DNA of 64,000 nt from contig JBBIUB010000001.1 of assembly GCA_037440465.1 (NCBI GenBank), positions 20,307-84,306 on the forward strand, read 5' to 3'. Both the position numbers and the translations under genes were made by a program. This DNA comes from Coprothermobacterota bacterium (GTDB lineage Bacteria > Coprothermobacterota > HKB111). The notes under the pieces are model-generated. The model made no database searches. It was given only the letters and a program-made list of their open reading frames with translations, and was not told the origin of the DNA. Shown here piece by piece: positions 24,107-26,581 of this stretch; the stretch's first letter is position 1; each line of letters starts with the position of its first letter.

Positions 24107-25018
24107 TCAGGGATTAAGAAAATCTATCCTTGGTCTCAAGGAGATTCTTTCCAGGAATTTCTCAGCTTCTTCATTAGTAACCTCATCAGGTGGTTTATCC
24201 AGAAAGGAAACTAACAATCCTTCAATAACATTGGTTCCAAAGGAGCGCCCTTCCCATTCTGGCGTAGTAGTTACTAGAAGTTTAACCCCTCTTTCTTTTA
24301 GGAGTTCCCGATCTTCACTCGTTACAGTATTAGTTAATATTAACTTTCCTTTCAAATCCAAGGGTGAATATCTTCTTATGAAATGAAAATCACCTGCTAT
24401 AAGATCTGCCCAATCAAAATAATGAGTAAAACGAGGTTCACTTTCATCTTGTTTTTTACCAACAGGATAAAGAAAACTCATAGGGAGGTAAGTAAGAATG
24501 GGAAGTAGCAAAGAAGCAACAATATCTACTGATTTAAGTGTCCTTAAAGGAAAAGGAAGTCCAAGAGCAAAAAGGAAGTCTCCAAATATAAGAGGACACC
24601 CGATCTGGCTTAACGCTTCACTAATGCTGTATCTATCAACAGCACTTACTACCAGTGTTTTTGTCTTATTATTAATTATTCCTTGGTTAAATAAAGTAAA
24701 AACAACCTTATTTTCCCAATTATTTTTTATTAGGGCACCATCTACAACATATGATTTCTTTACTAAATTTTTTAGTTTTAAGGCATCCTTTATGATATAT
24801 CTCTTATTTTTTGCAAATAAATATAGGCTTATACCGCCAAGGCCTATAGCATTTACCTGGCCATCTTGTTCTTTTATAAGGTCAAACATCCTGGAGAAAT
24901 TGCCATCTGTCCCTATCCTTTCAAGGCTGACTTTCTCTCCCAGAATATCTAACTCTACTCTATGATTTCTCTTAGATGAACCTAAACTAATGCTAACAAT
25001 TTTTTTCATTGACACCAC
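24107..25018 (-). CDS. Conserved hypothetical protein, possibly AroM-like (Asp/Glu racemase-like fold)
   Basis: A 303-aa soluble protein with an N-terminal IVSISLGSS...IGLGGIS block and a C-terminal LILTNTVTSEDRELLKERGVKLLVTT block, loosely resembling E. coli AroM. It is immediately downstream of the AAR-like gene with a 3-nt gap. Confidence 0.3.
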   Translation of the reverse strand: MVSMKKIVSISLGSSKRNHRVELDILGEKVSLERIGTDGNFSRMFDLIKEQDGQVNAIGLGGISLYLFAKNKRYIIKDALKLKNLVKKSYVVDGALIKNNWENKVVFTLFNQGIINNKTKTLVVSAVDRYSISEALSQIGCPLIFGDFLFALGLPFPLRTLKSVDIVASLLLPILTYLPMSFLYPVGKKQDESEPRFTHYFDWADLIAGDFHFIRRYSPLDLKGKLILTNTVTSEDRELLKERGVKLLVTTTPEWEGRSFGTNVIEGLLVSFLDKPPDEVTNEEAEKFLERISLRPRIDFLNP

Positions 25019-25119: not shown

Positions 25120-25194
25120 TGGAGCCGGCAGAGGGAGTTGGACCCTCAACCTGCTGATTACGATTCAGCTGCTCTACCATTGAGCTACACCGGC
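25120..25194 (-). tRNA. tRNA-Thr (anticodon CGT)
   Basis: The minus-strand sequence is GCCGGTGTAGCTCAATGGTAGAGCAGCTGAATCGTAATCAGCAGGTTGAGGGTCCAACTCCCTCTGCCGGCTCCA. It has a 7-bp acceptor stem with two G-U pairs, anticodon loop ATCGTAA, and an encoded CCA. The T-loop TCCAACT is slightly atypical. Confidence 0.75.
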
Positions 25195-25288
25195 TCCGTA
25201 AATTTTAGCACATGATTCTTGACTTTTGACCCTTCGCCCGATTAATAGTTTCCAAAATCGGATAATCTCCAAATTAGTTGTCTACATT

Positions 25289-25471
25289 AAGGATTCAAAG
25301 AGTCAATGAATATAGGACCCAAGAGGTCCAGGATTCAAGGGTTCAAGTGAATTGCATATGAATAACAAAGGAATAAAGGGTTATAGAAGTTGATTTTTTT
25401 ATTTTCTCTCGAATCCTCGAATCCTTGAATCCTCTAACCCTTCTTAGTAAACACTCGAAACCTTGAATCCT
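25289..25471. repeat. Imperfect inverted-repeat element of about 180 bp built from GGATTCAAG / CTTGAATCC units, 95 bp from tRNA-Thr
   Basis: The left arm carries AGGATTCAAAGAGTC and AGGATTCAAGGGTTCAAG. The right arm carries CTCGAATCCTTGAATCCT and CTCGAAACCTTGAATCCT, which are reverse complements of the left units and include a tandem GAATCC run. An internal palindrome GGACCCAAGAGGTCC is also present. No ORF is associated. Confidence 0.5.
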
Positions 25472-25576
25472 ATTTAGATAACCCATATAAAATTAATATC
25501 AATTCAAGTCAGTAATAGAGTAAAATATATTTGGTTTTATTAAACATACATAACTGGAATTACGGGAGGTTATTTA

Positions 25577-26581
25577 ATGCAAAAGATAGGTGTAATCTCA
25601 TACGGGTTAGGTCCTATTGGAAAAGGAATTGCCAAGACTGCTCATCAGAGGAAGGAATTAATCTTAATTGGTGGAGTAGATATTAATCCACAATTACATG
25701 GTAAAGATTTTGGAGAAGTAATTAGCATTGGTCCACTTGGTGTAAAAATAAAAAGCAGTCTTAAAGAAATCCCTGTTGAACAAGCAAAGGTTGTCTTACA
25801 TTCTACTCAATCATCATTTCCAAAGGTTTTTGATCAGCTTGAAGAAATCGCTAAATTAGGACTTAATATTATCTCAACCACAGAAGAATTATCTTACCCT
25901 TTTATCAAATATCCAGTACTTTCTGAGAAACTTGACAAGATAGCTAAAGAAAATGGTATTACCATACTCGGGACAGGAGTAAACCCGGGTTTTTTAATGG
26001 ATTCTTTTCCTCTATTCATCACATCAGTATCTAATAAAGTTAAGAGAATCCATATACTACGTTTGATGGACGCATCCAAAAGAAGAGGACCATTCCAAGT
26101 TAAGATTGGTTCAGGACTTACTACCCATGAATTTCATAACCTGGTTAAAAATGGAAAACTGGGTCATGTCGGACTTGAAGAATCAATTCAGTTTATCACT
26201 ACCTCCTTAAAGGTAGAGTTAGGAGACTACAAAGAATCTATCAAACCTGTACTTGCTGAAGAAAATATTAAAACAGATTATTTAGAAGTTTCTGCTGGTA
26301 TGGTAAGAGGTATTGATCAGGTTGGCATTGGATTTGATAAAGAAGGTAATGAAATAGTACGATTAGAGTTCAAGGCTTATCTTGAAGCTAAGAATCCACA
26401 TGATTTAATTGAAATTGAGGGTGATCCTTCTTTAACAGTTGTTATCCCTGGTGGAGTTCCGGGTGACATTGCTACTTCTTCTATAGTAACAAATGCCATA
26501 CCAAGAGTACTAAATGCATCTCCAGGTCTTCTTACAATGAAAGATATCCCAATAACTCATAATTTTGGAAGTTTTAAGTAG
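25577..26581 (+). CDS. DapB-like NAD(P)H-dependent amine dehydrogenase family protein (2,4-diaminopentanoate dehydrogenase-like)
   Basis: It has an N-terminal Rossmann fold (MQKIGVISYGLGPIGKGIAKTA) and a C-terminal DapB_C-like region, and its 334-aa length matches the Ord/native-AmDH family. An RBS (GGGAGG) is upstream. Confidence 0.5.
   Translation: MQKIGVISYGLGPIGKGIAKTAHQRKELILIGGVDINPQLHGKDFGEVISIGPLGVKIKSSLKEIPVEQAKVVLHSTQSSFPKVFDQLEEIAKLGLNIISTTEELSYPFIKYPVLSEKLDKIAKENGITILGTGVNPGFLMDSFPLFITSVSNKVKRIHILRLMDASKRRGPFQVKIGSGLTTHEFHNLVKNGKLGHVGLEESIQFITTSLKVELGDYKESIKPVLAEENIKTDYLEVSAGMVRGIDQVGIGFDKEGNEIVRLEFKAYLEAKNPHDLIEIEGDPSLTVVIPGGVPGDIATSSIVTNAIPRVLNASPGLLTMKDIPITHNFGSFK

Follow-up and report, generated by a model that had tools for sequence, protein, structure and literature searches.

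An inverted-repeat element lies between a tRNA-Thr gene and a threonine-catabolic operon in a 64,000-nt stretch of DNA from a Coprothermobacterota bacterium (contig JBBIUB010000001.1, positions 20,307 to 84,306; this whole stretch is referred to as the window). The element is probably a degenerate, gene-less copy of a dispersed family of cassettes that was gained in this lineage, and it is likely an inert relic. In its intact form, a cassette consists of an outer hairpin, four G-rich octamers, the sequence GTGAA-ATG, a PF05635/TIGR02436 gene for a four-helix-bundle protein, the sequence AAACAC, four C-rich octamers, and again an outer hairpin.

The window element matches the cassette profile

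A DNA profile (nhmmer) was built from 40 cassettes that had been found by protein similarity alone. Setting aside a weak match at 1459-1488 (E 0.049), which was dismissed and lies inside a PEPCK_ATP-like open reading frame (ORF), this profile matches the window only at the element. The first match, 25307-25371 to profile positions 42-106 (E 5.7e-9), covers an arm and the first ~7 codons of the gene, with GTGAATTGCATATGAATAACAAAGG of the window aligned to the gene-start consensus gtgaaaTgcTtaagAatTatAaaGA. The second, on the minus strand from 25349 to 25258, corresponds to positions 444-508 (E 1e-6), includes aactaatttggaga, and covers an arm and an outer hairpin. In addition, AAACAC directly before the last right-hand arm is the stop-side signature of intact cassettes, which encodes part of the terminal ..ENKHLNP*. 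The window copy thereby carries the G-rich arm-GTG...CAC-C-rich arm order of the family, both gene-derived inner junctions, and the left outer hairpin. An intact PF05635/TIGR02436 gene is not present in its loop, where ~7 codons are left, and the copy is an ORF-less derivative like most family members. Internal deletion would have removed nearly the whole gene and spared the left outer hairpin, the arms, ~7 codons at the gene start, and the junction on the stop side.

The features of the element are as follows.

About 25258-25490: whole element, about 230-240 nt
25258-25289: left outer hairpin motif 'H', TCGGATAATCTCCAAATTAGTTGTCTACATTA, with a degenerate second half (nhmmer)
25290-25471: repeat block, 182 nt
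25291-25314, plus strand: outer left arm F1, GGATTCAA AGAGTCAA TGAATATA, degenerate (direct-repeat families D2/D3, inverted pairs I5/I17)
25315-25349, plus strand: inner left arm F2, G-rich, GGACCCAA GAGGTCCA GGATTCAA GGGTTCAA and GTG (nhmmer; regular-expression array at 25331-25346)
25350-25372, plus strand: remnant of the 5' end of the PF05635 gene (nhmmer alignment)
25373-25408: AT-rich loop in which the gene remnant is not recognisable (the profile match ends at 25371)
25409-25440, plus strand: right arm R1, C-rich, TCGAATCC TCGAATCC TTGAATCC TCTAACCC (TRF, period 8, 3.4 copies; family D1; nhmmer 25407-25450 and 25453-25404)
25449-25470, plus strand: gene-end junction AAACAC (25449-25454) and right arm R2, TCGAAACC TTGAATCC
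25473-25485: right outer hairpin, probable remnant TTTAGATAACCCA compared with the consensus TTAGATCATCGCCA (by-eye comparison with family outer flanks, weak)

The repeat unit is an in-phase octamer, GGRKTCRA in one orientation and TYGAMYCC in the other, and each arm is a tandem array of it. On the left side, 25291-25346 is made up of seven in-phase units (GGATTCAA AGAGTCAA TGAATATA GGACCCAA GAGGTCCA GGATTCAA GGGTTCAA) that are followed by GTG. The right side has two arms, one of four units at 25409-25440 and, after AAACAC, one of two units at 25455-25470. R2 can pair with F2 over 20 nt (90%; inverted pair I4, formed by 25330-25349 and 25452-25471). Judged from this layout, the copy is compound and decayed, with F1 and R1 as apparent extra solo arm pieces. 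The gene remnant reads GTGAA-TTG CAT ATG AAT AAC AAA GG against a consensus of GTGAA-ATG CTT AAG AAT TAT AAA GA; its start codon has changed from ATG to TTG, and an in-frame stop is found at 25391-25393.

An initial annotation of this DNA, made from the letters alone, had described an inverted-repeat element of ~180 bp in a gap of ~380 bp, and both are present in the sequence, with measured lengths of 182 nt and 382 nt. The motif AGGATTCAAGG, with at most one mismatch, occurs at 25290 and 25330 on the plus strand and at 25415, 25423, and 25461 on the minus strand; five of the seven matches in the window fall in the gap (2.18 expected). For the 18-mer CTCGAATCCTTGAATCCT, with at most three mismatches, all four matches in the window fall in the gap, where 0.09 were expected. 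The internal GGACC..GGTCC palindrome described in the same annotation is also there, at 25315-25329, and consists of two degenerate octamer units of the left arm. Scans of the gap for promoters and terminators gave nothing over the shuffled expectation except the hairpin of this palindrome.

Two further resemblances were noted in the arm units. At the right end of the element (25462-25487), the arrangement CTTGAA-N14-CCCATATA resembles a sigma-32-type promoter (CTTGAA / CCCCATNT) directed towards the operon. C-rich arm units (CCCTTGAA) generally hold the -35-like hexamer CTTGAA. TCGAATCC was also noticed to look like the T-arm of a tRNA, and CCCTTGAA like the -35 box of a sigma-32 promoter; the distribution of the family makes both readings unnecessary.

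A cross-phylum family of inverted octamer arrays

A scan of one genome per species with the query CTYGAAHCCTTGAATCCT returned at least 119 loci. The matches are unevenly distributed over the bacteria: among those listed, 84 carry Desulfobacterota or 'Deltaproteobacteria'-type names, 10 belong to Nitrospirota, 4 to Aminicenantes, and 2 to Acidobacteriota. The array family is large and cross-phylum, and is found mainly in Desulfobacterota and Nitrospirota. Other genomes hold several copies per 8 kb, and 25 stretches come from viral contigs.

The copies share one anatomy: an A-rich lead, GGRKTCRA usually repeated four times, GTG, a loop of 11-551 nt, CAC, and four copies of TYGAMYCC. In 833 kb of listed loci, 116 G-rich and 111 C-rich arrays were counted. 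Neighbouring arrays (pairs within 800 nt) are ordered G-rich then C-rich in 68 cases and the reverse in 4, and the modal arm has four units. Unit positions 1, 2, 6, and 8 are 90-95% conserved, and positions 3, 4, 5, and 7 are variable. Most elements are intergenic (129/140) and nearly fill their spacers, with a median start 17 nt past the upstream gene and a median end 25 nt before the next start. Because co-directional, convergent, and divergent neighbours (67/15/12) occur in the proportions seen for background gene pairs, neither a terminator nor a promoter role is indicated.

In 21 of 220 arrays (~10%, against 0.9% in the background), an outer hairpin motif (TTTCTCCCAACTAATTGGGAGAAGAACC or TTAGATCATCGCCAACTCTTTGGGAGATGATCC) lies 14-19 nt beyond the arm end; intact cassettes have it on both sides. 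The flanks of copies that terminate in this motif are rich in TTA and TAA; no duplication was demonstrated there. Literature searches with 10-mer and 13-mer repeat strings yielded nothing but primer sequences unrelated to the family.

The outer hairpin has a variant of the form GGATCATCTCC...loop...GGAGATGATCC (L016 at ~103-134; the outer flanks of L025, L030, L041, and L051; and the window at 25258-25289). The first half of this variant resembles the 3' terminus of 16S rRNA (GGATCACCTCC), and the second half would form a near-perfect extended Shine-Dalgarno complement. This likeness may be a coincidence or may bear on translation.

Other arrangements of the arms were also observed. In a Desulfohalobiaceae metagenome-assembled genome (MAG; L027 5917-6176 and L034 6312-6520), four-unit G-rich arms occur four to five times in direct orientation with an identical ~30-nt spacer, gtggcggaagtggagagaggggagaagaga. 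This arrangement is a ~60-nt tandem repeat of arm and spacer and not an inverted pair. Some of the viral contigs carry dense minimal hairpins with loops of 9-10 nt just 5' of the ribosome-binding site of the next gene. In the IMG/VR contigs L148 (4321-6799), L142 (299-1598), L141, and L136, such a hairpin (4+4 units) follows almost every gene and ends ~15-20 nt 5' of the next GGAGG-ATG. L148 and L142 have 5' arms of GGGGCCAA/GGAGTCAA and 3' arms of TTGAATCC/TCGAACCC, for which unit position 4 would be a systematic G-A mismatch.

The full-length cassette and its deletion derivatives

Loops of ~290-380 nt hold an ORF of ~120 amino acids (aa). The ATG of this ORF lies directly 3' of the left-arm GTGAA, where the start-side junctions read GTGAAATGCTAAAAAATTACAAAGA, and its stop codon lies inside the right arm, such that AAACACTTGAACCCTTGA encodes ..ENKHLNP*. 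The protein matches PF05635 (23S_rRNA_IVP, E 3e-37) and TIGR02436 ('four helix bundle protein', E 2e-37). Its matches to the Avd models (bAvd PF22296 and NF033474) are weak, with 22.6 bits against a cut-off of 80, and the nearest solved structure is that of Xanthomonas XCC0516 (PDB 2GSC).

Gene and arms belong together. Metagenome contigs were searched with the protein alone, which gave 80 loci (60-97% identity). In 54 of these, a G-rich array lies no more than 80 nt before the ATG and a C-rich array lies at the stop; only 2 have neither array, from which it follows that arms and gene form one unit. The predicted RNA fold of an intact cassette has the arms paired across the whole ORF. In one otherwise intact cassette (L009 2686-2690), ATA stands at the start position in place of ATG, which may indicate a recent pseudogene or a non-canonical start.

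Intermediate loops hold gene fragments, for example aa 1-64, 56-123, 79-123, 93-123, and 101-123. Where both inner junctions could be typed, 14 elements have one start-type and one end-type junction, against 1 with two junctions of the same type, and 11 of the 14 have loops below 200 nt. This retention of both gene termini indicates that the ORF-less hairpins are internal deletions of gene-bearing cassettes. In the proposed scheme, hairpins would arise from cassettes in this manner and would far outnumber them.

In 46 of 57 cases the cassette gene points the same way as the gene upstream, and in 54 of 62 the same way as the gene downstream. It agrees in orientation with both neighbours in 29 cases and with neither in 1, for which random insertion would give equal numbers, and cassettes thus sit sense-oriented in host operons. 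The cassette gene, which appears to be promoter-less, would then be expressed by read-through from host promoters. The upstream position of the G-rich arm has a simple possible reason: as a purine-rich, Shine-Dalgarno-like sequence, it would favour translation of the enclosed gene. A telomerase-like reading of this polarity, in which both 3' ends are extended with G-rich repeats, was set aside as pure speculation.

Probable behaviour of the arms as motif arrays

The two arms of a cassette could zip into an imperfect stem of ~35 bp enclosing the entire ORF, in the manner of the stems found in rRNA intervening sequences. The pairing itself gives no sign of selection. Real arm pairs match at 21.5 of 32 positions and randomly re-partnered arms at 21.5 ± 0.4. 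In a second, independent set, the values are 0.795 for real and 0.786 ± 0.008 for re-partnered arms; 59 of 500 shuffles reached or exceeded the value of the real arms. Shifting the register has little effect (0.795, 0.793, and 0.786 at registers 0, +8, and +16). On the transcribed strand, G-U pairs are not in excess over A-C in intergenic copies (107 vs 130); the corresponding counts in gene-bearing cassettes (85 vs 59) are marginal and are not relied on. The arms are complementary because both are arrays of one motif. They would therefore act as arrays of a recognised 8-nt motif and not as a stem selected for its base pairs. This leaves two candidate readings: recognition of the units themselves, or a 'zipper' stem for which the register does not matter and which is enough by itself.

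An Rfam search of the gap (E up to 10) gave, apart from the tRNA, only chance microRNA matches, and 18 family loci searched at gathering thresholds gave no family beyond tRNA. The covariance check suggested in the initial annotation thus turned up no family in the gap.

Relatives keep the locus and lack the array

The surroundings of the element contain the following features.

25120-25194, minus strand: tRNA-Thr gene, anticodon CGT (ARAGORN; Rfam tRNA, 62.8 bits); neighbour, outside the element
25195-25576: intergenic gap, 382 nt, non-coding
25201-25217, minus strand: conserved block adjoining the tRNA gene, with TGCTAAAAT at 25201-25209; outside the element
25513-25529, plus strand: conserved block 5' of the operon, with the -10-like GTAAAATATA; outside the element
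25577-26581, plus strand: operon gene 1, DapB_N/DAP_DH_C, 2,4-diaminopentanoate-dehydrogenase-like (Pfam)

After gene 1, the operon encodes a Zn-ADH (tdh-like), a class I/II aminotransferase (kbl-like), and KsgA (Pfam). Since the tRNA-Thr gene is on the minus strand and the operon on the plus strand, the gap is a divergent promoter region and the element lies on the 5' (promoter) side of the tRNA gene, not at its 3' flank, where the initial annotation had placed it.

The same arrangement is found in relatives. In locus L122 (74% aa identity for the first operon gene) and in six loci of Candidatus Psychracetigena formicireducens (candidate division WS2; L238-L243, 61% aa identity), the tRNA-Thr(CGT) gene and the operon are kept, with the tRNA in the same position in L122 and L238. 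No octamer array was found upstream of the orthologous operon in L122, L123, or L238-L243. A MAFFT alignment of the gap was unreliable at its 3' end, and an affine-gap pairwise alignment with L122 was used instead; only its two end blocks are trusted, and its short internal blocks look spurious. The block at 25201-25217 shares 16 of 17 bases with L122 5873-5889, and that at 25513-25529 shares 15 of 17 with L122 5959-5975. The spacing between the two blocks is 295 nt in the window and 69 nt in L122. In the first block, TGCTAAAAT looks like the extended -10 element of the tRNA-Thr gene, and GTAAAATATA in the second is a putative -10 element of the operon promoter. The element is thus placed between two likely promoters and outside both. 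Gain in the window lineage would be the simplest reading of the absence in relatives, and the element most likely does nothing for the tRNA gene or the operon.

Two neighbouring genes differ in their conservation. A 303-aa ORF beside the tRNA-Thr gene (24107-25018, minus strand) has no Pfam match, and counterparts of 299-300 aa occupy the same position in L122 and the WS2 loci. The WS2 loci contain a 66-aa DUF6485 gene between the tRNA-Thr gene and the operon (L238 2249-2449, also L239-L243), which is absent from the window and L122.

Several observations weigh against the assignment of the window element to a mobile cassette family. No target-site duplication has been demonstrated; L122, which offers the nearest empty site, has diverged too far for the boundaries to be placed. 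There is no clean empty site at a close evolutionary distance, and loss in the relatives is a less simple alternative to gain. The resemblance of the right outer hairpin to its consensus is weak. The octamer array is present as a single copy in the 64-kb window, which contains no PF05635-like ORF (best E 2.8), so a multi-copy status in this genome is unproven. Approximately 100 chance matches to the 18-mer are expected in 596 Gb of uniform sequence, and the locus count by itself therefore proves nothing; a minority of the at least 119 loci (for example L005, L038, and L081) are chance matches within genes. No transposase or recombinase is linked to the cassettes, the full-length relatives of which encode only the PF05635 four-helix-bundle protein. 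Finally, the complementarity of the arms lacks covariation, and the stem may not be the selected feature.

Alternative explanations for the element

In the first alternative, the palindrome was exapted, whatever its origin, as a structural element: in the form of a cruciform, a hairpin, or a structure of the G-quadruplex type, it would now insulate or modulate the promoters of the tRNA-Thr gene and of the operon. The position of the element between two promoter-proximal conserved blocks is consistent with such a role, as are the predicted folds of the gap, which are better than those of shuffled sequence on both strands (z -3.6 and -3.5), and the finding that similar G-rich heptamer arrays form G-quadruplexes in vitro and alter reporter expression (PMC4692102; bioRxiv 10.1101/2022.06.06.494920). 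A role of this type is nonetheless unlikely: relatives run the same gene arrangement without the element, the copy is decayed, with degenerate units of which only some contain GGG, and family copies have no preference for divergent or convergent contexts.

Growth in place as a microsatellite is distinctly unlikely. According to this explanation, an 8-nt unit slipped on both sides of a small palindrome, no mobility was involved, and four-helix-bundle genes are secondary guests. Slippage would account for the equal pairing of the arms at three registers, for the wide variation of array length in some genomes (L035 and L229), and for the ~186 arrays of Xanthomonas, which far outnumber four-helix-bundle genes (PMC4692102). 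It would not account for the non-repeat cassette parts of the window copy, which stand in the right order (outer hairpin, then gene-start and stop-side junctions), or for the start-type and end-type junctions that short-loop copies keep (14 vs 1). In addition, heterogeneous units and a nearly constant arm size of about 4 units are unlike fresh slippage products, and essentially one octamer consensus recurs in several phyla and in viral contigs.

The initial annotation had offered three options, of which a miniature inverted-repeat transposable element (MITE)-like remnant is closest to the result: the element is a small, ORF-less inverted repeat of a dispersed family, but a transposase-encoding parent is missing and no target-site duplication was shown. 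The other two options fared worse. A structured non-coding RNA or riboswitch-like leader transcribed from the gap is very improbable; despite folds more stable than those of shuffled sequence, no Rfam family was matched in the gap or in the 18 family loci, neither compensatory change between the arms nor a G-U excess was seen, the element is absent from orthologous loci, and the conserved -10-like block of the operon lies downstream of it. It is scarcely plausible that the octamers bind a dimeric or cooperative regulator of the threonine-catabolic operon, as the 8-bp met boxes bind MetJ, with the GGATTCAA arrays as the sites. The 8-bp tandem units do occur in both orientations upstream of the operon, yet the array is absent before the orthologous operon in L122 and the six WS2 loci, lies upstream of the conserved -10-like block, and has counterparts inside phage gene clusters and, at well over 100 loci, in the spacers of unrelated genes. 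Chance low-complexity sequence, which the initial annotation would have accepted for an element that is unique and not conserved, has a negligible probability, since the element is indeed unique in the window and missing from relatives but gives four 18-mer matches against 0.09 expected and a profile match at E 5.7e-9.

Distant PF05635 genes are flanked by arrays of other units

The association of PF05635 genes with inverted arrays extends beyond the octamer family. Distant PF05635 genes (29-54% identity) were found on cyanobacterial plasmids, in Gemmatirosa (Gemmatimonadota) and Azospirillum, and in 26 viral contigs, and they are flanked by inverted arrays of GGGAGTA, AAAGGGA, AGAAGGC, GGCGTTC, TAGGGTG, GTTGGCT, and other units. 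A flanking inverted repeat that scores at least 14 is present for 24 of 35 distant genes and for none of 32 control ORFs in the same loci. The period of these arrays is 7 nt in 22 cases and 8 nt in 2, and the upstream arm is G-rich in 24 of 24. PF05635 proteins with the same unit type are 72% identical (median), compared with 41% for different unit types.

Some of these genes lie in defined operons. On cyanobacterial plasmids (L229 1501-1860; L233 592-948; L231 1492-1854; L237 595-963), PF05635 genes are inserted into other operons, where the flanking genes are cas6 and cas4, cas10/cmr2 and cmr3, or a parA-like ATPase gene and parB; one of these copies lies in the opposite orientation between the genes for the beta and alpha subunits of ribonucleotide reductase. 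In Pseudanabaena galeata plasmid pPg_01 (L229 1381-1500 and 1861-1965), the stretch directly before the ATG of the four-helix-bundle gene is filled by ~14 AAAAGCT copies, which have the orientation of the AAAAGCC array beyond the gene. Their inverted counterpart, made of AGCTTTT units, is found at 1309-1350, farther out on the upstream side, and this locus is more complex than a simple bracket.

Comparison with known systems

Cyanobacterial heptamers of the short tandemly repeated repetitive (STRR) type were reportedly described in Calothrix by Mazel in 1990, and 23S rRNA intervening sequences that carry an ORF reportedly by Ralph and McClelland in 1993. Xanthomonas campestris contains ~186 GGGAATC arrays, mostly of four units, with 70 convergent inverted pairs (Rehm et al. 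2015, PMC4692102). They form G-quadruplexes in vitro, most are transcribed, their function is unknown, and they were judged not to be associated with mobile elements (PMC4692102). One of them, repeat #15, has four GGGAATC-type units and overlaps the start codon of XCC0516 (PMC4692102 supplement), the gene of the solved structure cited above. Heptamer arrays are also known from Beggiatoaceae (TAACTGA), cyanobacteria, and Bacteroidetes (PMC4679880), and for those of Nostoc an 'unidentified interacting partner' has been invoked (bioRxiv 10.1101/2022.06.06.494920).

The Xanthomonas GGGAATC and Nostoc GGGGAYT arrays share several properties with the present family: short G-rich tandem intergenic units, a four-unit mode, frequent convergent inverted pairs, and unit positions of which some are conserved and others free. 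They differ in that the present unit has 8 nt (GGRKTCRA) and not 7, and that its hosts are mainly Desulfobacterota and Nitrospirota, together with a WS2-related MAG. The published work on these arrays did not connect them with PF05635 genes or with deletion derivatives, and in the literature searched, no paper was found that links 7-8-nt arrays to PF05635. The family-level link between PF05635 genes and such tandem arrays appears not to have been reported before.

The intervening sequences of 23S rRNA (the Leptospira and Coxiella type; Pfam description of PF05635) resemble the cassettes in their protein family, in complementary flanks able to form a stem round the ORF, and in being embedded in and co-transcribed with a host transcription unit. 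In contrast to these sequences, which are found in helix 25 or 45, the cassettes lie between protein-coding genes, with the window copy between divergent promoters, and RNase III excision is a property of the intervening sequences. With MITEs and repetitive extragenic palindromic sequences (REPs) with their bacterial interspersed mosaic elements (BIMEs), the family copies also share a small size, an intergenic position, an inverted-repeat layout without an ORF, occurrence in multiple copies, and descent from or kinship with a longer element that encodes a protein. Unlike the unique terminal inverted repeats of MITEs and REPs, the arms are tandem degenerate 8-mers, and the parent encodes a four-helix-bundle protein and not a DDE transposase or a REP-associated tyrosine transposase (RAYT). 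Moreover, REPs are species-specific, whereas this consensus is common to several phyla. The Avd protein of diversity-generating retroelements belongs to the same fold family as the cassette protein (weak matches; relationship in PMC10053308), although the scores of the latter are far below the Avd cut-offs, and the window contains no gene of this kind.

Implications

For the bacterium itself, the window palindrome provides no basis for inferring control of the threonine-catabolic operon. For annotation more generally, hairpins of this kind break assemblies, mimic terminators or microRNA-like folds, and add repeat-encoded tails to ORFs.

To our knowledge, PF05635 proteins have had no function since their discovery inside rRNA intervening sequences. 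Tandem heptamers have been reported repeatedly (Xanthomonas/Nostoc 2015, Beggiatoaceae 2015), each time without a function or a binding partner. Nearly constant bracketing by inverted arrays, co-orientation within operons (including CRISPR-Cas and parAB operons), and an origin of hairpins by deletion turn these two open questions into one testable hypothesis. The link between PF05635 and the arrays is drawn from sequence evidence only, and the following proposal is tentative, and less likely than not to be right: PF05635 genes and G-rich 7-8-nt arrays may constitute one two-component selfish system across bacteria and phages. Its autonomous form would be a gene without a promoter of its own, carried in host operons and enclosed by a G-rich array on the 5' side and a C-rich one on the 3' side; the non-autonomous hairpins, much more numerous, would arise from it by deletion. 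The protein, whose relative Avd forms a pentamer, would recognise the arrays of four to five units that belong to it, in the form of RNA, single-stranded DNA, or G-quadruplex, and would in turn help them to be processed, to persist, or to spread. For this hypothesis, culturable models are at hand, as is a solved structure (2GSC). If true, it would give a common explanation for the cyanobacterial STRR heptamers, the Xanthomonas GGGAATC arrays, and the ORF-bearing rRNA intervening sequences.

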